A stretch of DNA of 10,143 nucleotides, from the UHGV virus genome UHGV-1652557; one strand, 5' to 3'. The translations under genes were made by a program, and so were the position numbers. The notes below the pieces were generated by a model, which did no database searches, was not told where the DNA came from, and was given only the letters and a program-made list of their open reading frames with translations. Of the stretch, positions 1-7,938 are shown piece by piece (the first letter of the stretch is position 1; each line of letters starts with the position of its first letter). The stretch comes from a virus.

Positions 1-94
1 ATGCTTCCATCGGAAACGATGATCTGGCAGCCTGAGTTCACAGATAAAACACTCTCCAGGAAACCCGGGGCGGTTCAAATTGCCTCTTTGCCCG

Positions 95-796
95 TCATAC
101 AGTTGCTCCTTTCAGTCCGAACTTCGCTTTGATTTCTGCGATCTTCGCCAGAGCCTGTGCACGATTTAGAGGCCTACCGCCCATGACAGGAAGTTGTTTT
201 ACTGGTTCAGGTATCGCCTCACCACGGTTAATTCGCGCGGTCATACAGGTCAGCTCATCGGCAGCTTTACGCCGTAATTCCGCGTCAGTCAGCGCATTGG
301 CCCGCATGTTCTGGTACAGGTTGGTAACCAACCAGTAGTGCGCGTTTGATTTCCATGGATAAGACTCTGCGTCCGGATACAGGCCACGCTTCCGGCAATA
401 CTCGTAAACCATATCAACCAGCTCGCTGGCGTTTGGCAGTCCGGCGGTAACGGATGCTTCTTCCCGGCACCAGGCGACAAACTGCCCGGGTGATGGCAGG
501 AATGGTCGATTCTGCCGACGGGCTACGCGCATTCCTGCGTTAACCTGTTCCATTGTGGTGATCCCGTTTTCCCGGAAAGCCAGAACCCACTGGCGGCGGA
601 TTTCGTTCAGTTCGTTCTGGTCCCGGTTAGCCAGGCTCGCCGGGAAAGTTGCCAGTAACTGGCTGAACACACCGTTGATGATCCGCGCTACCTGCTGTAC
701 CTGCGGCTTTTCGTCGTACTGTTCCGGCATGTTGTTGGCGATCCGGCGCATCTGCTCACGGTCAAAGTTAACCATCTGTGCGGCGATGTTTTTCAT
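95..796 (-). CDS. P: Replication protein P (lambda P-type DnaB helicase loader)
   Basis: 233-aa ORF whose translation matches lambda P as I recall it, with only a few substitutions. Its start ATG (796-794) overlaps the O stop (795-793) in an ATGA arrangement. Identity was not computed. Confidence 0.93.
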   Translation of the reverse strand: MKNIAAQMVNFDREQMRRIANNMPEQYDEKPQVQQVARIINGVFSQLLATFPASLANRDQNELNEIRRQWVLAFRENGITTMEQVNAGMRVARRQNRPFLPSPGQFVAWCREEASVTAGLPNASELVDMVYEYCRKRGLYPDAESYPWKSNAHYWLVTNLYQNMRANALTDAELRRKAADELTCMTARINRGEAIPEPVKQLPVMGGRPLNRAQALAKIAEIKAKFGLKGATV

Positions 797-1722
797 AAAT
801 CCACCCCATAAATCCAGTCAGTGTTTGTCAGGTCGAGTTTTGATTTTCCGGCTGTCACGCCAGCCTGTTGCTTGTTACGGTTGATTTCGAGTTGGGTCCA
901 CTTGTCGCGGAGTTTGGCCGGACTTAGCACGTTACCGGACCAGAAGTTGTCCTGGCATGCCCAGCGGAACAGCACGCACATGTCGCGGTGGTTACGTCCG
1001 TCACGTTCACGCATCAGGCGGATATCGTTAGCCCACCCTGCAAAATTCGGTTTTCTGGCTGATGGCGCGATGGTCTTCACCATGTCAAACATCCACTCTG
1101 CGGCGGTCAGGTCTTCTGCTGTCCCCCACCTGCTGCCGCTCTGAATTGCAGCATCTGGTTTCTCCACAGGAAGATCGTTTTCTGGTTGGTCAGAGGATTC
1201 GCCAGAATTCTCGGACGAAAAAGGTTTTATATTGTCTTTTGTTAGTTTGTCTTTTGTGTTTACCTGATTCGGGTAAACGCCTTTACCTGATTTGGGTAAA
1301 CTTTTCTTACCTGATTCAGGTAAATTTACCTCTTTCAGGTAAACTTTATTTTTCTTACCTGATTCGGGTAATGTTGACCATTCACTGACCACATTATTAA
1401 TGCCGATATTCCGCCCGCTCTGAATAAGAATCCCACGCTTTACCAGAACGCTTTTTGCAGCAGAACACTTGTGCGGCAATATCCCGGTCAACTCGGAAAG
1501 TTGCTCGTTGCTCACCCAATCCAGTTTTTTATTAAAGCCATATGTTTTGCGCATGACAGCCAGGAAGACCAGAAGCTGGTGCTGTGTTAATCCGGCCAGC
1601 ATCACAGCTTCCAGCAACTCATTTGCAATGCGCGTATAACCATCATCGAGATCTGCCACGCGCGGCTCCTTTTGTGCCGCATCCGGCACTGGAAAATTGA
1701 ATATCTCAGCAGTGTTTGCCAT
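793..1722 (-). CDS. O: Replication initiator protein O (mosaic: non-lambda N-terminal half, lambda-type C-terminal P-interaction domain)
   Basis: The ORF is open from 1812, but the internal Met at 1722-1720 gives MANTAEIFNF, which aligns with the lambda O N-terminus MTNTAKILNF, and is preceded by a GGGAGG RBS. The DLDDGY motif is present. The C-terminal ~90 aa matches lambda O from memory. Iterons lie inside the gene as in lambda ori. Confidence 0.88.
   Translation of the reverse strand: MANTAEIFNFPVPDAAQKEPRVADLDDGYTRIANELLEAVMLAGLTQHQLLVFLAVMRKTYGFNKKLDWVSNEQLSELTGILPHKCSAAKSVLVKRGILIQSGRNIGINNVVSEWSTLPESGKKNKVYLKEVNLPESGKKSLPKSGKGVYPNQVNTKDKLTKDNIKPFSSENSGESSDQPENDLPVEKPDAAIQSGSRWGTAEDLTAAEWMFDMVKTIAPSARKPNFAGWANDIRLMRERDGRNHRDMCVLFRWACQDNFWSGNVLSPAKLRDKWTQLEINRNKQQAGVTAGKSKLDLTNTDWIYGVDL
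1257..1378. repeat. Origin of replication: five iterons, each an inverted repeat TTACC-N6/7-GGTAA (e.g. TTACCTGATTCGGGTAA), flanked by an AT-rich tract at 1215-1256
   Basis: Direct reading: TACC cores at 1261, 1284, 1308, 1327 and 1356 with 19-29 bp spacing, inside the O coding sequence. The adjacent AT-rich stretch (aaaaaggttttatattgtcttttgttagtttgtcttttgtgttt) lies downstream in the O reading direction, as in lambda ori. Confidence 0.8.
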
Positions 1723-1808
1723 AATTCCTCCCGCAATGAGTGTGTTACGATTTGCACCTGAAAGTCGGTTCTGTTCCCGCAGACCGACTTTCGCCATTTC
1801 TGAACCTG

Positions 1809-2348
1809 TCATATTGCCCCCAGCATGGTGGTCACCATCGCCATTAATGGACCAGCCAGATCCGGGTCCACACGAAACATCGACACAATACCTTCACTCA
1901 TTTCCTTCAGTTTCTGGTGGCGTGGTGCGTTGAGAATGACAGCCTGTTTTGCCTCACTGAGTTCCTTTTCCATTTCAGCCAACCGAGTCATGAAGCTATC
2001 CTGCTCAACCAGGTAACCGCGATATTCCAGCGGTAGTACCGCCAGAATTGCCGGGGTCAGTTCACGCACGTTATTTCGGTATTTTTCAGAATCGAATTTG
2101 TTATCGAGGAAGCGGAACAGCTTCTGGCGTGCACGGCTGACATCATCAGGGAAATCGATGGTGCCGTCGCCCTGCTCCCGATACTCATTCACAATGAGTG
2201 CGGCAACGACATCCTGATTATCTACAGCCGACCAGGCGCGGACGGCATCACGGATTTTTTCGTGGCCTGGAGCTTGTTTTGTTTGAGAACGATTTATCAC
2301 CGCAGTCGGAATAAATCCGCTAGTCTGTTGGTATGTAAGTGGTTGCAT
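1809..2348 (-). CDS. Regulatory protein in the cII position (179 aa; not lambda CII; possibly a phage 186 CII/CP76-like or YdaT-like family member)
   Basis: ORF with an AAGGAG RBS 6 nt upstream of the ATG at 2348. Its stop overlaps the start of the long O ORF. It sits between cro and O. Family assignment is from memory and uncertain. Confidence 0.6.
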   Translation of the reverse strand: MQPLTYQQTSGFIPTAVINRSQTKQAPGHEKIRDAVRAWSAVDNQDVVAALIVNEYREQGDGTIDFPDDVSRARQKLFRFLDNKFDSEKYRNNVRELTPAILAVLPLEYRGYLVEQDSFMTRLAEMEKELSEAKQAVILNAPRHQKLKEMSEGIVSMFRVDPDLAGPLMAMVTTMLGAI

Positions 2349-2417
2349 AATTGACTCCTTTAGTTTGAATTGACTGTTAAGTTGATTGCTTATTGTTAAA
2401 GAGCGTGAAATGGAAAT

Positions 2418-2648
2418 TTAAGCTGCGTTCTTTTCGGTGTGTGGAAACAACTTCGGAAGATCCGGGCGAATCTGGTATGCCTTCACAACTCCACCAGTAG
2501 CCGTAACAATGCTGCCGACATGTTCAGGGGATACCTTTGCTTTGTTGTGAAGCCACTTATAGACGGCCTGCTGTGAAACTTCGCAGGCATCGCCTAGTTT
2601 CTTTTGTGAACCAACGATATTGATCGCTGTTTTGATTGCTGGGTTCAT
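2418..2648 (-). CDS. cro: Cro-like HTH transcriptional regulator
   Basis: 76-aa ORF transcribed divergently from the repressor gene. HTH-like segment QKKLGDACEVSQQAVYKWL. GGAGG RBS 5 nt upstream. PR-like promoter immediately upstream. Confidence 0.8.
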   Translation of the reverse strand: MNPAIKTAINIVGSQKKLGDACEVSQQAVYKWLHNKAKVSPEHVGSIVTATGGVVKAYQIRPDLPKLFPHTEKNAA

Positions 2649-2752
2649 AACAACCTCCGTGGTTAATCCGAATCAAGATTAAAACTATGGTTGTTTTTAG
2701 TCAACAACCATTTTCGTTTGATGAAATAAAACCTTGGTTGTACATTTGATCT
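2649..2752. promoter_or_regulatory. Right operator/promoter region (OR with divergent PR and PRM)
   Basis: PR on the minus strand: -35 TTGACT (2704-2699), 17-bp spacer, -10 TAATCT (2681-2676). PRM on the plus strand: -35 TTGATG (2718-2723), 17-bp spacer, -10 TACATT (2741-2746), with no SD before the cI ATG at 2753, suggesting a leaderless transcript as for lambda PRM. A 17-bp operator AAAACTATGGTTGTTTT (2681-2697) fills the PR spacer. Further GTTGTT/AACAAC half-sites at 2701-2717 and 2729-2745. Confidence 0.7.
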
Positions 2753-3442
2753 ATGAAAACAACACTCTCAGAAAGACTTAAAGAAGCCAGATTAGCGCGA
2801 GGCCTTACACAAAAGGCGCTTGGGGATTTGGTCGGGGTTAGCCAGGCTGCTATTCAGAAAATCGAAACAGGGAAAGCTAACCAAACAACTAAAATCGTGG
2901 AGATCGCGAACGCTTTGGGTGTGCGCGCAGAATGGTTATCTTCTGGCGTTGGAAATATGTCAGACAGTACAGTGCAACCAATACAATCAACTGTCAGCCA
3001 TTCCAAATACTTCAAAATTGACGTTCTTGATATAGAAGTCAGTGCCGGGCCAGGTGTAATCAACCGTGAGTTTGTAGAAGTTCTACGCTCGGTTGAGTAC
3101 TCGTTTGACGATGCTCGTCACATGTTCGATGGCAGGAAGGCGGAAAATATCCGCATCATTAACGTGCGAGGTGACAGCATGTCAGGGACGATCGAACCAG
3201 GTGACCTGCTGTTCGTTGATATCACTGTTAAATCTTTCGACGGTGATGGCATCTATGCGTTTCTGTACGACGACACTGCCCATGTAAAACGTCTTCAAAT
3301 GATGAAGGATAAGCTGCTGGTTATCTCTGATAACAAGAGCTACTCGCCGTGGGACCCGATCGAGAAAGACGAGATGAACCGGGTGTTCATATTCGGTAAG
3401 GTCATTGGAAGCATGCCGCAGACGTACAGGAAGCATGGTTAA
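2753..3442 (+). CDS. cI: CI-like prophage repressor (N-terminal HTH, C-terminal LexA-like S24 autopeptidase domain)
   Basis: 229 aa. HTH LTQKALGDLVGVSQAAIQKIETGK. Ala-Gly candidate cleavage site in EVSAGPG. GDSM serine motif and downstream VKRL lysine motif typical of the LexA/CI S24 family. Confidence 0.92.
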   Translation: MKTTLSERLKEARLARGLTQKALGDLVGVSQAAIQKIETGKANQTTKIVEIANALGVRAEWLSSGVGNMSDSTVQPIQSTVSHSKYFKIDVLDIEVSAGPGVINREFVEVLRSVEYSFDDARHMFDGRKAENIRIINVRGDSMSGTIEPGDLLFVDITVKSFDGDGIYAFLYDDTAHVKRLQMMKDKLLVISDNKSYSPWDPIEKDEMNRVFIFGKVIGSMPQTYRKHG

Positions 3443-3671
3443 TTTATCTACGACTTAAGGGAGCGAAGGTTAAGGTTTATACCACTCGGATTAGATATTG
3501 CACTAAATTCTCTATAAGAACGCCAAATCTGTTTGCATATTTCAGTAAATATTCTCGTTGTTAGCTGAGATTTGTTGCTACTGTCAGCAAAATGTCCCCC
3601 TATCTCGTAGCGGTTTTTATTTCGAATCATTATGTTAAGATGTTTCTGATTATAATGAATGGAAACATAAA

Positions 3672-4052
3672 ATGAGAAAAATCCTAATCGCTGCCATGAT
3701 GGCATCTGTATTGGCTGGGTGTGCTTCTTCAGGCAACCAGCAACTCAAAAATGAAACTGAAATTAGTGTCCAGTCTAAACTTCAGGAAGGTAAAACAACC
3801 AAGAATGAGGTTAAATCTTACTTTGGTTCTCCTGATGCTGTTTCATATACTGACAGTGGAAACGAGATCTGGAAGTACGCCTTTGCAAAAGTAAAAGTTA
3901 ATGGCACCACTTTTATTCCATTCTATGGATTATTCCATAATGGAACGAACGGTACGAAAAAAGAACTTACTATTCTTTTTAACGATGACACGATTAAGAA
4001 ATACACAATGTCAGAAACCCAAATAAACTCGAAATCAGGTTGGGCTGACTGA
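3672..4052 (+). CDS. Lipoprotein moron with a BamE/SmpA-OmlA-like domain (candidate lysogenic-conversion or superinfection-exclusion protein)
   Basis: 126 aa. Signal peptide with lipobox LAGC (MRKILIAAMMASVLAGC). Mature part shows a BamE-like pattern (KTTKNEVKSYFGSPDAVSYTDSGNEIWKYAF ... LTILFNDD), from memory. Preceded by an AT-rich 228-bp spacer with a perfect TATAAT at 3651-3656. Followed by a strong terminator. Confidence 0.85.
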   Translation: MRKILIAAMMASVLAGCASSGNQQLKNETEISVQSKLQEGKTTKNEVKSYFGSPDAVSYTDSGNEIWKYAFAKVKVNGTTFIPFYGLFHNGTNGTKKELTILFNDDTIKKYTMSETQINSKSGWAD

Positions 4053-4060
4053 TAATCATA

Positions 4061-4089
4061 CCCGGCAACCGCGCCGGGTTTTCTTTTCC
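4061..4089 (+). terminator. Rho-independent terminator after the lipoprotein gene
   Basis: Stem ACCCGGC (4061-4067) / GCCGGGT (4074-4080), 6-nt loop, then TTTTCTTTT. Confidence 0.75.
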
Positions 4090-4198
4090 TCCCCCTCATA
4101 ACTCATACCGTCCAAAAAACCACCACACCTCACTTCAGTTATCGCTATGCGATGCAAGTCACAAAATAAATCCATCCTAAATACAACCAGTTATATTT

Positions 4199-4260
4199 AA
4201 AACAACCGACAAAACAACTTTTGTTGTTGACGATAAAACAACTATAGTTTTAAATAAATT
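4199..4260 (+). promoter_or_regulatory. Left operator/promoter region (OL/PL)
   Basis: -35 TTGACG (4228-4233), 17-bp spacer, -10 TTAAAT (4251-4256), reading toward kil-gam-bet-exo. Operator AAAACAACTATAGTTTT (4237-4253) fills the spacer and differs at one base from the PR-strand reading of the OR operator. Additional AACAAC-N4-GTTGTT site at 4213-4228 and an AACAAC-containing site at 4199-4218. Confidence 0.7.
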
Positions 4261-4532
4261 CATCGCAACGACACAACGATACGGTAACCACCTGTTTCAC
4301 CGTTGCGATGACCGCTTAGATCCGCAGTTTGAATTTCAGCAGGCTTCGGGGAGTGCGAGGGGTGAAGCGGACGCGTGAACGTCGGTGTGACCAGCTGAAA
4401 TCAACTCAACACTTCATACCTCAGTCGCTTCAACGAGGCGACTTAGTTATGACAACCGGCGGCCATCCACCGCCTGAATACGCGCAGAAGTCTCTATATG
4501 TTCAGCAGCCCAGCTTACGGGCAGGAGTTTTT

Positions 4533-4739
4533 ATGGTTCATCAACATTACGGAACGCAGACCGTTAATCGAGGTGCGGTCATGCCAGGAATGCTGGTCAA
4601 ACACAAAGATGGTACCTGGACTGCATCAGCTAATTTACGCGGACGGCTTTATCTGCATCGCGGCATCGAGCGCACTTATACCCGTGATTTGCTCGTGGAA
4701 GTTTTTCTCGACGGACGCGGTAACGGCCTGAATCGCTAA
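4533..4739 (+). CDS. kil: Kil protein, KilR-type (host cell-division inhibitor)
   Basis: 68-aa reading from the ATG at 4533 with an AGGAG RBS 5 nt upstream. MVHQHYGTQ...[17 protein letters not shown]...LY...[10 protein letters not shown] resembles Rac prophage KilR as I recall it (HHFGT...PGDYVLHEGRTYIASAN...VFLGRDGLPV). Position between PL and gam. The longer ORF from the TTG at 4329 or the ATG at 4449 lacks a good RBS. Confidence 0.65.
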
Positions 4740-4814
4740 TCCCCTTTCCTGTTTTCCTAATCAGCCTGGCATTTCGCGGGCGATATTTTCACAGCCATTT
4801 TCAGGAGTTCAGCC

Positions 4815-5111
4815 ATGAACGCTTATTACATTCAGGATCGTCTTGAGGCTCAGAGCTGGGCGCGTCACTACCAGCAGATCGCCCGTGAAGAGAAAGAGGC
4901 AGAACTGGCAGACGACATGGAAAAAGGCCTGCCCCAGCACCTGTTTGAATCGCTATGCATCGATCATTTGCAACGCCACGGGGCCAGCAAAAAAGCCATT
5001 ACCCGTGCGTTTGATGACGATGTTGAGTTTCAGGAGCGCATGGCAGAACACATCCGGTACATGGTTGAAACCATTGCTCACCACCAGGTTGATATTGATT
5101 CAGAGGTATAA
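4815..5111 (+). CDS. gam: Gam, RecBCD inhibitor (short GamS form)
   Basis: 98-aa translation [21 protein letters not shown]... matches lambda GamS from memory. AGGAG RBS. An in-frame stop at 4758-4760 and no upstream ATG exclude a long GamL form. Confidence 0.95.
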
Positions 5112-5116
5112 AACGG

Positions 5117-5902
5117 ATGAGTACAGCACTCGCAACGCTGGCTGGGAAGCTGGCTGAACGTGTCGGCATGGATTCTGTCGACCCACAGGAACTGATCACC
5201 ACTCTTCGCCAGACGGCATTTAAAGGTGATGCCAGCGATGCGCAGTTCATCGCATTACTGATCGTTGCCAACCAGTACGGCCTTAATCCGTGGACGAAAG
5301 AAATTTACACCTTTCCTGATAAGCAGAATGGCATCGTTCCGGTGGTGGGCGTTGATGGCTGGTCCCGCATCATCAATGAAAACCAGCAGTTTGATGGCAT
5401 GGACTTTGAGCAGGACAATGAATCCTGTACATGCCGGATTTACCGCAAGGACCGTAATCATCCGATCTGCGTTACCGAGTGGATGGATGAATGCCGCCGC
5501 GAACCATTCAAAACCCGCGAAGGCAGAGAAATTACGGGGCCGTGGCAGTCGCATCCCAAACGGATGTTACGGCATAAAGCCATGATTCAGTGTGCCCGTC
5601 TGGCCTTCGGATTTGCGGGTATCTATGACAAGGATGAAGCCGAGCGCATTGTCGAAAATACCGCATACACTGCAGAACGTCAGCCGGAACGCGACATCAC
5701 TCCGGTTAACGATGAAACCATGCAGGAGATTAACACTCTGCTGATTGCCCTGGATAAAACATGGGATGACGACTTATTGCCGCTCTGTTCCCAGATATTT
5801 CGCCGCGACATTCGCGCATCGTCAGAACTGACACAGGCCGAAGCAGTGAAAGCTCTTGGATTCCTGAAACAGAAAGCCACTGAGCAGAAGGTGGCTGCAT
5901 GA
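5117..5902 (+). CDS. bet: Bet (Red-beta) single-strand annealing recombinase
   Basis: 261-aa translation matches lambda Bet nearly residue for residue, from memory. Confidence 0.96.
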
Positions 5903-6579
5903 CACCGGACATTATCCTGCAGCGTACCGGAATCGACGTGAGAGCTGTCGAACAGGGGGATGATGCGTGGCACAAATTACGGCTCGGCGTCATCACCGCT
6001 TCAGAAGTTCACAATGTGATAGCAAAACCCCGCTCCGGAAAAAAGTGGCCTGACATGAAAATGTCCTACTTCCACACCCTGCTGGCTGAGGTTTGCACCG
6101 GTGTGGCTCCGGAAGTTAATGCTAAGGCGCTGGCATGGGGAAAACAGTACGAGAACGACGCCAGAACTCTGTTTGAATTCACTTCCGGCGTGAATGTTAC
6201 TGAATCCCCGATCATCTATCGCGACGAAAGTATGCGTACCGCCTGCTCTCCCGATGGTTTATGCAGTGACGGCAATGGCCTTGAGCTGAAATGCCCGTTT
6301 ACCTCCCGGGATTTCATGAAGTTCCGGCTCGGTGGTTTCGAGGCCATAAAGTCGGCTTACATGGCCCAGGTGCAGTACAGCATGTGGGTGACGCGAAAAG
6401 ATGCCTGGTACTTTGCCAACTATGACCCGCGTATGAAGCGTGAAGGCCTGCATTATGTCGTGGTTGAGCGGGATGAAAAGTACATGGCGAGTTTTGACGA
6501 GATGGTGCCGGAGTTCATCGAAAAAATGGACGAGGCACTGGCTGAAATTGGTTTTGTATTTGGGGAGCAATGGCGATGA
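5899..6579 (+). CDS. exo: Exo (Red-alpha) 5'-3' exonuclease
   Basis: 226-aa translation matches lambda Exo from memory. ATGA overlap with the bet stop. Confidence 0.96.
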
Positions 6580-6758
6580 CGCATCCTCACGATAATATCC
6601 GGGTGGGCGCGATCACTTTCGTCTACTCCATTACAAAGCGAGGCTGGGTATTTCCCGGCCTTTCTGTTATCAGAAATCCCCTGAAAGCACAGCGGCTGGC
6701 TGAGGAGATAAATAATAAACGGGGAGCTGTATGCACAAAGCATCTCCCGTTGAGTTAA
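6576..6758 (+). CDS. Lambda orf60a-like exo-xis region protein
   Basis: 60-aa reading from the ATG at 6576, overlapping the exo stop. Same length and position as lambda orf60a. An alternative ATG lies at 6570. Confidence 0.75.
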
Positions 6759-6922
6759 GAACGAGTATCGAGATGGCACATAGCCTCGCTCAAATTGGAG
6801 TCAGGTTTGTGCCAATATCAGTAGAAACAGACGAAGAATTTCATACGTTAGCCGCATCCCTTTCACAAAAGCTGGAAATGATGGTGGCGAAAGCAGAAGC
6901 AGATGAGAGAGACCAGGTATGA
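6731..6922 (+). CDS. Lambda orf63-like exo-xis region protein
   Basis: 63-aa ORF overlapping orf60a by 28 nt, the same overlap as in the lambda annotation as I recall it. Confidence 0.75.
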   Translation: MHKASPVELRTSIEMAHSLAQIGVRFVPISVETDEEFHTLAASLSQKLEMMVAKAEADERDQV

Positions 6923-7002
6923 CAACCACTGAATGCATTTTTCTGGCAGCGGGCTTCATATTCTGTGTGCTTATGCTTGCCGACATGGGGCTTGTTCAAT
7001 GA
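6919..7002 (+). CDS. Small hydrophobic peptide (27 aa), translationally coupled between orf63 and the next ORF
   Basis: MTTTECIFLAAGFIFCVLMLADMGLVQ. The ATG overlaps the orf63 stop (ATGA) and the stop overlaps the next ATG (ATGA). Could be a single-pass membrane peptide, but coding status is unproven. Confidence 0.3.
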   Translation: MTTTECIFLAAGFIFCVLMLADMGLVQ

Positions 7003-7214
7003 CACCTCAGCAAGAAAACGCCCTTCGCAGCATTGCCCGTCAGGCTAATTCTGAAATCAAAAAAGCCAGACAGCAGTTTCCGGATAAAAACGTCGATGAC
7101 ATTTGCCGTAGCGTACTAAAGAAGCACCGCGAAACGGTAACGCTGATGGGATTCACACCGACTCATTTAAGCCTGGCGATCGGCATGTTGAACGGCGTCT
7201 TTAAGGAACGGTGA
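6999..7214 (+). CDS. Hypothetical exo-xis region protein (71 aa, in the orf61 position)
   Basis: ORF read from the ATG at 6999 (MTPQQENALRSIARQ...). The longer 6933 start adds a Cys/His-rich, non-protein-like extension. Confidence 0.55.
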   Translation: MTPQQENALRSIARQANSEIKKARQQFPDKNVDDICRSVLKKHRETVTLMGFTPTHLSLAIGMLNGVFKER

Positions 7215-7235
7215 ACATGAAAAGCAAAATCATCA

Positions 7236-7260
7236 GGGAGCTACAGGCTCCTTTTTTATT
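7236..7260 (+). terminator. Rho-independent terminator inside the exo-xis region
   Basis: Stem GGAGC (7237-7241) / GCTCC (7247-7251), loop TACAG, then TTTTTTATTATT. Confidence 0.6.
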
Positions 7261-7312
7261 ATTCGCATTCACCCTCAAGCGTATTAACCAACAATTCAGG
7301 GATTAATGAAAG

Positions 7313-7534
7313 ATGGCAGACATAATTGATTCAGCATCAGAAATTGAAGAATTACAGCGCAACACAGCAATAAAAATGCGCCGCCTGAACCACCAGGCTA
7401 TATCTGCCACTCATTGTTGTGAGTGTGGCGATCCGATAGATGAACGAAGACGACTGGCCGTTCAGGGTTGTCGGACTTGTGCCAGTTGCCAGCAAGATCT
7501 GGAGCTTATCAGTAAACAGAGAGGTTCGACGTGA
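7313..7534 (+). CDS. TraR/DksA-family C4 zinc-finger protein (lambda Orf73-like RNA polymerase-binding regulator)
   Basis: 73 aa with CxxC-(17)-CxxC (CCECGDP...CRTCASC), typical of TraR/DksA C4 fingers. Same size and position as lambda orf73. Confidence 0.82.
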   Translation: MADIIDSASEIEELQRNTAIKMRRLNHQAISATHCCECGDPIDERRRLAVQGCRTCASCQQDLELISKQRGST

Positions 7535-7938
7535 GCGAAATTAACTCTCAGGCACTGCGTGAAGCGGCAGAGAAAGCCGGTGAAGATAAGTGGCAGGCTA
7601 AAAAAATAAATGGTGATTTTTTCGTTATTCGTCACGGTAGTTATACAAGACAGCATGGCTACACATCGTATCAACCCATTGCGGAGATTGATTGTAAGCC
7701 AGTCCGGGATTTTGTTGCCAAGGCTAATCCGGCTACCGTGCTGGAATTACTGGATGAACTGGAAGCAGCAAAAAAGCGCATTGCAGAACTGGAAGCGCGG
7801 GAAATACTGCTCCCGGAACGTAGCAGCATGCTTCATCGAACAGATTTTCACGATGATTACCAAACGGTAATGGCATACAAAGTTTCTGAAGTCATCGATG
7901 CAATCCGCGCTACTGGCATTCGCATCAAAGGAGAGTGA
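7531..7938 (+). CDS. Ead/Ea22-like protein
   Basis: 135-aa ORF with a GTG start overlapping the preceding stop (GTGA). Coiled-coil segment PATVLELLDELEAAKKRIAELEA resembles the Ead/Ea22-like family, from memory. Confidence 0.65.
   Translation: MSEINSQALREAAEKAGEDKWQAKKINGDFFVIRHGSYTRQHGYTSYQPIAEIDCKPVRDFVAKANPATVLELLDELEAAKKRIAELEAREILLPERSSMLHRTDFHDDYQTVMAYKVSEVIDAIRATGIRIKGE

Follow-up and report, generated by a model that had tools for sequence, protein, structure and literature searches.

The swappable two-domain O protein of lambda-like phages, with the replication origin inside its gene, reportedly goes back to work on lambda-phi80 and lambda-82 hybrids in 1978 and is said to have been textbook material ever since. 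PMC4488673, citing the study of Furth and Yates (1978) from which these hybrid O proteins come, assigns binding of the origin repeats to the amino-terminal half of O and describes an interaction of O with P. The opening of an AT-rich region by O at its own repeats is known from lambda (PMC4488673, PMC7466680), the number of repeats varies within the family, with six versus four (PMC7466680), and differences within this protein group go along with origin specificity (PMC8022706).

Here, we compare these systems with a locus in a viral DNA stretch of 10,143 nt (UHGV virus genome UHGV-1652557), the whole of which we will call the window. It very probably carries a natural two-part hybrid O with its own origin, a lambda-type P route, and a start at ATG 1722. 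In this preferred reading, gene O occupies 793..1722 on the minus strand and encodes a lambda O family replication initiator of 309 aa (MANTAE...GVDL) within a longer ORF of 339 aa (793-1812, minus strand). The Pfam family PF04492 (Phage_rep_O) matches aa 21-115 with 118.9 bits (cut-off 28.7; E = 1.4e-34), a sequence match that places O among the origin-binding initiators of lambda O type.

The gene that follows, P (95..796, minus strand; PF06992, E = 9e-62), starts with an ATG that overlaps the O stop codon (ATGA). It was described in the initial annotation as lambda-type throughout, and 227 of its 233 residues (97%) are indeed those of lambda P, with 95.2% DNA identity. The locus therefore has the layout of a lambda-type O-P pair, that is, a lambda-homologous O C-domain followed by a lambda-type P, and because both are near-identical to lambda, the two proteins would be expected to interact physically. 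Upstream of O, the "cII-slot" gene (1809..2348, minus strand; PF06254, E = 4e-30) encodes a 179-aa YdaT-family or phi80-type CII protein that is 66% identical to phi80 CII; YdaT has been described as the functional equivalent of CII (PMC9986795, PMC8630535). The Rac prophage of K-12, suggested as a relative by the PGAP labels "YdaT/YdaS", was set aside, its ydaU being an unrelated DUF1376 protein.

This mosaic gene is an ordinary and very common prophage replication gene of a kind that is already known. Counting full-length matches of at least 95% identity, the allele is present in 2368 of 5426 complete Escherichia coli genomes, and it is also found in 15 phage records. These include the PhiR series, 4A7, Perceval, 1W, and 3W, which were isolated as particles or as induced lysogens. 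The TTACC-N7-GGTAA type of O and origin occurs in 44% of the complete E. coli genomes, compared with 24% for the lambda type, and is the commonest O/ori specificity among E. coli prophages. In phage D2, O is split, and a sequencing error in the repeats may be the cause.

As in the rest of the family, where palindromic repeats numbering 4-6 lie in mid-gene about 19-24 bp apart, the origin is found inside the initiator coding sequence. It consists of five 17-bp palindromes, TTACC-N7-GGTAA, which span 1260-1371 (no strand assigned) and code for O aa 118-155; the individual repeats are at 1355-1371, 1326-1342, 1307-1323, 1283-1299, and 1260-1276. No other site of this form exists in the window (chance expectation 0.05), and the same five are the only matches to the full consensus when up to 3 mismatches are allowed. 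A looser pattern, TTACC-N4-9-GGTAA, adds one unrelated N4 site at 7857. An Rfam match to rliD (Listeria) that lies on the repeats, the sole hit in window 1-4800 at E ≤ 1, reached 16 bits against a gathering score of 50 and was treated as chance.

Read in the O sense, the repeats start 29, 19, 24, and 23 nt apart, as compared with 20, 24, and 23 in lambda, and the extra repeat, the first in the row, accounts for a 30-nt insertion relative to lambda. All 11 intact copies that were checked, the 79%-identical CX15 allele among them, agree in number and spacing. In GZ7, the first site is degenerate and the other four are exact; two decayed copies contain four repeats. Alignment places the repeats where they are in lambda, 933W, P22, and SEN34 (those of lambda and 933W are annotated). 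Within the allele, substitutions in the repeat region are 1 synonymous to 4 nonsynonymous, which suggests that this region is constrained as DNA rather than as protein.

The initial annotation had called five TTACC/GGTAA iterons, different from those of lambda, with spacers of six or seven nucleotides. The five sites and their difference from the lambda repeat (TCCCTC-N5-GAGGGA) are borne out, and so is the seven-nucleotide spacer; none has six. A match to the lambda ori consensus would have spoken for the lambda origin-specificity class, but that class requires ATCCCTCAAAACGAGGGA and the window repeats read TTACCYGAATCAGGTAA. The locus also falls outside the P22 gene 18 origin class (TTTACC-N5-GGTAAA, with a gp12-pairing C-terminus), given its N7 spacer and its different C-terminus and partner. 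The literature search returned no experimental characterization of the TTACC-N7-GGTAA origin type.

Directly after the repeats, as is usual in the family, comes an AT-rich box (1218..1259, no strand assigned) with 24% GC against 47.6% for the window. Its core, CACAAAAGACA...ACAAAAGA, is invariant in six of six aligned origins. The box also holds the recombination junction: the initial annotation had proposed alignments with lambda, 21, phi80, and 82 to find the breakpoint, and comparison with lambda and other O alleles puts it here. Identity to lambda by blastn starts precisely at window 1259, as do the Megablast matches of 933W-type and other O alleles, and up to about 1222 the box is closer to SEN34 and P22 than to lambda. 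The junction is at the same time the right-hand end of a substitution of about 3.5 kb relative to lambda (window 1260-4735), in which cII, cro, and cI are exchanged as well. In the lambda RefSeq record, O bears two recombination marks (39157/8 and 39165/6, with no note in the table) that align with window positions of about 1221 and 1213, at the junction of the window O; they are probably crossover points of the classical hybrids.

On either side of this junction, O belongs to different types. DNA identity to lambda amounts to 50.1% between the O start and the last repeat, 76% across the 38-nt AT-rich box, and 94.9% in the 3' part (1221-793). In the protein, aa 1-167 share 68 of 167 residues with lambda O (about 41%), and aa 168-309 share 137 of 142 (96.5%). 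The initial annotation had expected exactly such a contrast between a non-lambda N-terminal half and a lambda-type C-terminus, together with a modular exchange at the domain junction. Its estimate of about 90 aa for the lambda-type portion was too low, the actual extent being about 142 aa, or 46% of O. Uniform divergence from lambda O, which it had named as evidence to the contrary, was looked for, and a step from 50% through 76% to 95% was seen instead.

The relatives show the same independence of parts, the identities of the two domains being decoupled across 21 homologues. Relative to the window O, the lambda type is 48% identical in the winged-helix domain and 94% in the C-domain, and the P0062 type 41% and 96%. 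The lambda-type C-domain is joined to at least five other combinations of N-domain and repeats. The window-type N-domain and its five repeats, in turn, travel as a unit, and are found with another C-terminus in E. coli CX15 and Klebsiella phage GZ7. Phages 21 and 434 have the lambda-type N-domain, which is 46% identical to that of the window, the same as for lambda. Judged by these comparisons, each half of O has had a history of its own among the relatives, and module exchange within O, a textbook pattern among lambda-like phages, is supported, whatever the direction and number of the recombination events. We found no phage 82 record carrying this allele in the phage collection and no text on phage 82 repeats in the literature.

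The type of repeat follows the type of N-domain: TTACC-N7-GGTAA accompanies it in the window, GZ7, and CX15, TTAGC-N7-GCTAA in SEN34, TTACC-N5-GGTAA in P22, TCCCTC-N5-GAGGGA in lambda and 933W, and a TTCCC-GGGAA type in phi80. This change of the repeat sequence with the N-domain fits the reading that origin specificity was altered and that, by analogy with lambda, the O-P pair was retained.

The domain structure of O agrees with the position of the junction. Pfam places a winged-helix origin-binding domain of non-lambda type at aa 21-115 (1378..1662, minus strand); the lambda-type 3' part (793..1221, minus strand; aa 168-309) would be the P-binding part by homology, and within it a folded helical domain is predicted at aa 198-288 (859-1131, minus strand). 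The AlphaFold model gives pLDDT values of 70-87 for aa 30-115 and 80-85 for aa 200-288. The repeats and the AT box encode aa 118-167, within a low-confidence segment (aa 119-197) between these two confident domains. This segment is predicted to be an unstructured linker, although the alignment behind the model is shallow, with 22 sequences, and a low pLDDT in a linker does not prove disorder. In a Foldseek search of the model against the PDB, the best matches were MarR/CRP winged-helix proteins, all weak (E of at least 0.03), with none at E ≤ 0.001. A PDB sequence search with O gave no match, and we found no solved structure of an O protein.

The 90 nt upstream of ATG 1722 (the leader, 1723..1812, minus strand) are open in the O frame and form part of a 339-aa O in most database records. 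On the opposite strand, a promoter-like site, TTGAAT-17-CATAAT (1697..1725, plus strand), is antisense to O, with its -10 over the O start codon. The scanned region contains 2 promoter consensus matches versus 2.2 expected; on its own the site is a consensus match, and it derives its weight from its position, which is that of lambda pO. Lambda has TTGAGT-17-CATAAT at the same place, and a description of pO is given in PMC3349717.

About 60-80 nt beyond the promoter one expects, in oop/M3-type RNAs, a conserved antisense terminator hairpin, and there is such a hairpin in the leader (1760..1792, plus strand), identified by folding and covariation, with a weak U-tract (CGCCAUUUCUG). On the plus strand, it folds with -20.8 kcal/mol (z = -4.2; 0 of 200 shuffles as good), compared with z = -1.85 on the minus strand. 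Compensatory changes are seen at seven pairs among six alleles, and in two alleles U.G pairs occur that are valid solely on the plus strand. The hairpin most likely terminates an oop/M3-like antisense RNA running from about 1733 to 1800 on the plus strand; in phi80, the same gap carries an annotation for M3 RNA, the oop homologue. An Rfam scan of window 1-4800 (E ≤ 1) gave no oop family, and the promoter and terminator consensus scan missed the hairpin, whose T-run is too weak for it to be called a terminator.

Could the contrast between the two halves have arisen without recombination, with the whole of O having diverged and the C-terminal half kept lambda-like by stronger purifying selection? 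The C-domain is generally more conserved than the N-domain across the family, but within about 40 nt DNA identity to lambda climbs from 50% to 95%, a level that is kept over the whole of P and also at synonymous sites. Moreover, phi80 gp15 is evenly about 41% identical to the window O over its whole length, so that the C-terminal 96% is not simply the result of a stronger constraint on that domain, and in the Pantoea homologues the contrast is inverted (82% in the winged-helix domain, 47% in the C-domain). We regard this explanation as extremely improbable. A mosaic would also result if assembly or sequencing had fused two prophages of one genome into a chimera, and many E. coli genomes do carry several lambda-like prophages, with near-identical O-C/P segments in up to five places per genome. 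The allele (at least 95% identity) nevertheless recurs, with consistent internal variation, in the 2368 complete E. coli genomes of the 5426 and in the 15 independently sequenced genomes of isolated phages; it is therefore not an assembly artifact, and we put the probability of a chimera at practically nil. That the module is a decaying cryptic-prophage remnant, its O/ori/P set dead and the mosaic without present function, is unlikely. The ren gene is reduced to 7 codons where the lambda-like block ends on the left, and in the identical GB089 locus it is annotated as a pseudogene; some copies of the O allele are IS-truncated or frameshifted, with only four repeats. Against this, O and P are intact in the window, neither the five repeats nor their spacing have changed, most substitutions in the O body are synonymous (48 synonymous to 20 nonsynonymous), the same allele is carried by the phages obtained as particles or induced lysogens, and ren is not required for lambda replication. 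The window copy itself, lying in a prophage with a truncated ren, may be inactive.

The remaining alternative concerns the start codon and not the hybrid: the real O could be the 339-aa product of ATG 1812, translationally coupled to the YdaT/CII-type gene. No stop interrupts the frame, and, as the initial annotation had pointed out, this ATG (1812-1810) overlaps the TGA (1811-1809) of the upstream gene as ATGA. A G-run there pairs with the 3' end of 16S rRNA at -8.4 kcal/mol (-10.3 kcal/mol for ATG 1722), GenBank phage records and PGAP annotate 1020 nt, and protein cluster P0001 has 7825 members of 339 aa. However, the 30-codon extension has no counterpart in lambda, phi80, P22, SEN34, GZ7, CX15, or 933W, and the leader has in-frame stops in CX15, SEN34, GZ7, and phi80. 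In O157:H7 alleles, a +2 insertion in the leader breaks the long frame and leaves the 309-aa ORF intact, and in these strains, PGAP calls exactly the 930-nt ORF. Leader substitutions are 1 synonymous to 7 nonsynonymous as against the 48 to 20 of the O body (Fisher p = 0.0024), the hairpin covaries in a way that is functional solely on the opposite strand, and ATG 1812 is a by-product of the conserved ATA TGA (Ile-stop) end of the upstream gene, which in phi80 ends alike. By contrast, ATG 1722 is aligned with the O starts of lambda, phi80, SEN34, GZ7, CX15, and 933W and has a GGAGG 5 nt upstream; AGGAG or GGAGG is conserved at this place in those phages and in P22. The longer product is thus quite improbable as the real O: on sequence evidence, the true start is most likely ATG 1722, giving 309 aa, ATG 1812 is probably not used, and the leader is probably non-coding. 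A minor long isoform from ATG 1812 could still be made through coupling at the ATGA overlap. That the leader has two jobs, with the antisense RNA tuning the ratio of O to a longer coupled isoform where the frame is open, is an idea to which we attach little credence. The E. coli copies H142 and H172, in which homology begins at the O start, were discarded as gene-boundary evidence, being IS-truncated and frameshifted.

Returning to the two-part hybrid with its start at ATG 1722, its 5' part (1722 to about 1222) would supply the non-lambda winged-helix domain and the origin, five repeats and then the AT-rich box, and its 3' part (about 1221 to 793) the lambda-type C-domain, with P next to it. 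By analogy with lambda biochemistry, O dimers would bind the five repeats via the N-domain to form a bent nucleoprotein complex, this complex would destabilize the adjacent AT-rich box, and the C-domain would recruit P and the host DnaB helicase complex. We infer in this way that the window O would bind the repeats within its gene and open the AT-rich region; the literature search returned no binding, replication, or interaction experiments on this allele. Since repeats and N-domain are inherited together, the element would differ from lambda in origin specificity while keeping the lambda-type P route to the host helicase. The AT-rich box, as the putative exchange point, is conserved between otherwise unrelated origins and for that reason could serve as a homology patch for recombination. 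It would also code for part of the unstructured linker, so that swaps at this place may harm neither of the two folded domains.

As a discovery, an allele already present in thousands of genomes is of small value, and its use lies elsewhere. Most database records, among them the 7825-member cluster and the PGAP calls, probably give O 30 codons too many, and the over-long annotation would cover the gene of the oop-like antisense RNA. One should not assume that the rules of ori-lambda, such as repeat titration and O specificity, hold for nearly half of E. coli genomes. In addition, the pairs of N-domain and repeat (TTACC-N7, TTAGC-N7, TTACC-N5, TCCCTC-N5, and TTCCC) are a ready data set on how this winged-helix family reads its DNA site.

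Of the described systems, lambda O/ori/P has the same gene order and ATGA overlaps as the window and the origin at the same place in O, with 17-bp palindromes (last three spacings 20, 24, and 23 vs 19, 24, and 23 in the window) and, after them, an AT-rich box whose conserved core is shared. Its O C-terminal 142 aa are 96.5% and its P 97% identical to those of the window. The differences are in the N-domain (about 41-48% identical), the repeats (TTACC-N7-GGTAA vs TCCCTC-N5-GAGGGA, five vs four), and the conserved box of 33 bp that precedes the start (PMC3349717) and is largely replaced in the window. The classical lambda-phi80 and lambda-82 hybrids are alike in that origin specificity goes with the N-terminal half and P specificity with the C-terminal half, with the crossover inside O; in the window, however, the N-half partner is neither phi80 nor lambda.

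The closest classical N-domain is that of Salmonella phage P22 gene 18 (66% identity over aa 19-117). The P22 origin shares the TTACC/GGTAA half-site and the AT-box core ACACAAAAGACAAT, but has four repeats (spacing 20, 24, and 23) with an N5 instead of an N7 spacer, and gene 18 has an unrelated C-terminus and as its partner gp12, a DnaB-type helicase, instead of P. The CX15 prophage and GZ7 have the N-domain type (79-80% identical), the TTACC-N7-GGTAA repeats, and the spacing of the window; unlike the window, they have another C-terminus followed by a DnaC/DnaI-like ATPase loader in place of P, and ahead of the start they retain the 33-bp box along with an in-frame stop. Phi80, with the order cII, M3 RNA, gene 15, gene 14, resembles the window in its 180-aa YdaT-family CII and in the gap of about 85 nt with M3 RNA (the oop homologue) on the opposite strand before the O homologue, although gp15 has its own TTCCC-GGGAA-type repeats and no lambda-like segment. 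Finally, the O of the Shiga-toxin phage 933W shares the lambda-type C-terminal half and P, its match starting exactly at window 1259, whereas its N-domain and its six repeats are those of the lambda type.

A lambda-like prophage early region makes up the window, whose replication initiator gene O (793-1722 or 793-1812, minus strand) is a mosaic. At the DNA level, O is 50.1% identical to lambda from its start through the final origin repeat, 76% over the 38-nt AT-rich box adjoining the repeats, and 94.9% over the remainder of O, with 95.2% in P (95-796, minus strand); this is a step, not uniform divergence. At the protein level, 68 of 167 residues are identical to lambda O over aa 1-167, as against 137 of 142 over aa 168-309 and 227 of 233 in P. 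The initial annotation was thus right about an N-terminal half unlike lambda and a lambda-type P, and also about a lambda-type C-terminus, although this spans ~142 aa instead of ~90 aa. Within P, a patch at 227-286 (minus strand) falls to 75-78% identity against ~95% on either side (ADELVHMTARI becoming ADELTCMTARI), and may be a small mosaic piece.

When compared with lambda by blastn, the window contains two lambda-like blocks, 78-1259 (94.6%) and 4736-7572 (97.6%), separated by a heterologous stretch at 1260-4735; the O mosaic therefore marks where a ~3.5-kb substitution spanning immunity and origin specificity ends on its right-hand side, inside O. In the cII slot lies a YdaT-family gene for a 179-aa protein (1809-2348, minus strand), and in the cro slot a YdaS-family gene (2418-2648, minus strand); other genes are an S24-type repressor (2753-3442, plus strand), a lipoprotein gene (3672-4052, plus strand), a kil-like ORF (4329-4739), and gam, bet, and exo (plus strand). 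The cII-slot protein is 66% identical to phi80 CII, and the literature regards YdaT and YdaS proteins as equivalent to CII and Cro (PMC9986795, PMC8630535); Pfam and PGAP tag both genes as "toxins". A boxA-like CGCTCTTTAACAA lies at ~2392-2404 (minus strand), directly downstream of the cro-slot stop, with no obvious boxB hairpin after it, and the interval from the lipoprotein gene to the kil-like ORF shows no evident N-like gene. At the other end, ren is down to seven codons (ATGACGGGCAAAGAGGCAATTTGA; 75-98, minus strand), and similarity to lambda, as to phage PhiR26_1, stops at 78; in strain GB089, where the tested 621-nt O/ydaT segment matches the window at 100%, ren is annotated as a frameshifted pseudogene.

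The pattern TTACC-N4-9-GGTAA matches six times in the whole window, against a chance expectation of 0.05, and five of these sites cluster at 1260-1371. The count of five iterons given initially holds, whereas the N6 spacers do not, every spacer being N7; a 17-nt consensus allowing up to three mismatches finds only the same five sites across 10 kb. Each repeat is a 17-bp palindrome (6-8 of 8 positions symmetric), as long as the repeat core of lambda. Start-to-start distances, read in the O sense, are 29, 19, 24, and 23, compared with 20, 24, and 23 in lambda, and a 30-nt insertion relative to lambda is the extra first repeat. Substitutions among alleles in the repeat and AT-box region (1 synonymous to 4 nonsynonymous) fit a constraint acting on the DNA sites and not on the encoded peptide. 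Stx phages differ in repeat number (PMC7466680). Some variants of this O allele (P0005, P0006, P0009, P0011, and P0013) lack 24 or 32 aa of repeat-encoded linker and keep two or three repeats, which could reflect true inter-repeat deletions or assembly collapse; loci L011 and L013 hold IS-truncated, frameshifted O copies with four repeats.

One might argue that the C-terminal half of O resembles lambda only because it is a slowly evolving domain. This is contradicted by phi80 gp15, which is evenly ~41% identical to the window O along its full length, so that a 96% C-terminus is not merely slow to evolve. In an alignment of 21 homologues obtained by protein search, the identities of the winged-helix domain and the C-domain are uncoupled: 48% and 94% for the lambda type, 41% and 96% for that of homologue P0062, 43% and 86% for that of homologue P0098, 58% and 78% for the SEN34 type, and 82% and 47% for the Pantoea type. 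The E. coli CX15 prophage pairs the window N-domain with five repeats at the spacing seen in the window, and Klebsiella phage GZ7 pairs it with four exact repeats and a degenerate first one; unlike the window, both carry another C-terminus and a DnaC-like ATPase in place of P. Repeat type tracks N-domain type, being TTACC-N7-GGTAA in the window, GZ7, and CX15, TTAGC-N7-GCTAA in SEN34, TTACC-N5-GGTAA in P22, TCCCTC-N5-GAGGGA in lambda and 933W, and TTCCC-GGGAA in phi80. The mosaic observation is therefore correct, including iterons that differ from those of lambda, and its interpretation as modular exchange between the origin-binding and C-terminal parts is supported.

Among six aligned origins the repeats vary, whereas the adjoining box CACAAAAGACA...ACAAAAGA is invariant. 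When aligned to the window by megablast, O alleles of the 933W type and many others from E. coli start to match exactly at 1259, one base past the last repeat, while in the six-origin alignment the box is nearer SEN34 and P22 than lambda up to ~1222; the exact junction is therefore comparator-dependent, within 1222-1259. The lambda RefSeq (locus L021) carries two unlabelled misc_recomb features inside O, 39157/8 and 39165/6; these correspond to ~1221 and ~1213 in the window, the site of the natural junction, and probably mark where classical hybrid phages crossed over. An AlphaFold model of O (22-sequence alignment, mean pLDDT 61) has a confident helix-turn-helix with a beta wing (aa 22-108) and a confident helical domain (aa 198-288), with a low-confidence segment between them (aa 119-197), where the residues encoded by the repeats and AT box (aa 118-167) fall. 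A conserved DNA patch inside a protein linker would offer a safe and frequent crossover site. In the E. coli O157:H7 strains EDL933 and 86-24 (genome hits H173 and H174), the match to the window O begins only at O nt 142 (window 1581), which suggests an additional mosaic junction within the N-terminal domain.

The frame of O is open from ATG 1812 through ATG 1722, giving 339 or 309 aa. The upstream start overlaps the stop of the cII-slot gene, as initially noted, is the one annotated in nearly all records (a 1020-nt O), and has a predicted pairing with the 16S rRNA 3' end of -8.4 kcal/mol (-10.3 for 1722). Nevertheless, in all relatives the start aligns with 1722 (MANTAE, MTNTAK, or MSNTAE), with AGGAG or GGAGG ~5 nt upstream; the leader (1723-1812) has in-frame stops in CX15, SEN34, GZ7, and phi80; and O157:H7 alleles carry a +2 insertion there, with PGAP calling a 930-nt gene. 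Across eight alleles the leader shows 1 synonymous to 7 nonsynonymous changes versus 48 to 20 in the O body (Fisher p = 0.0024), and ATG 1812 is a product of how the upstream gene ends, in a conserved ...ATA TGA that phi80 shares. The start is most likely 1722, and a minor long isoform may arise from 1812. One 511-aa ENA protein (P0003) joins the YdaT and O Pfam domains in a single gene call, probably through a frameshift or gene-calling artefact at the ATGA overlap.

The leader is most likely an oop/M3-like antisense RNA locus. A promoter-like TTGAAT-17-CATAAT (1697-1725, plus strand) places its -10 over the O start codon, the same position as lambda pO (PMC3349717). A hairpin at 1760-1792 (plus strand) beats all 200 shuffles (z -4.2), seven of its pairs are maintained by compensatory changes, and its U.G pairs in two alleles would turn into C-A mismatches if the O strand were folded. 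In phi80, the oop homologue M3 RNA is annotated in the equivalent gap. A 33-bp box preceding O, conserved in lambda, P22, SEN34, CX15, and GZ7, is mostly replaced in the window.

Of 5426 complete E. coli genomes, 2368 carry the full-length O allele (at least 95% identity) followed by P, compared with 1328 genomes for the lambda-type N-part, and the allele is also present in 15 phage records, among them PhiR26_1 (99.3%), 4A7, Perceval, 1W, and 3W; strains GB089 and 720632 carry identical copies. Such numbers mean that the allele is not rare and not an artefact; it is already plentiful in databases. Practical value is limited to the likely over-long O annotation, the oop-like element beneath it, and an origin type commoner than ori-lambda in E. 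coli.

By analogy with lambda, O dimers would use their N-terminal half to bind the palindromic repeats, giving a bent complex, the AT-rich box beside them would then open, and the C-terminal half would bring in P and the host helicase. Binding of the repeats by the amino-terminal half and an O-P interaction are described in a passage of PMC4488673 (citing Furth and Yates 1978), and the O protein group varies along with origin specificity (PMC8022706). The finding is an instance of the long-known modular design of lambda-family initiators.
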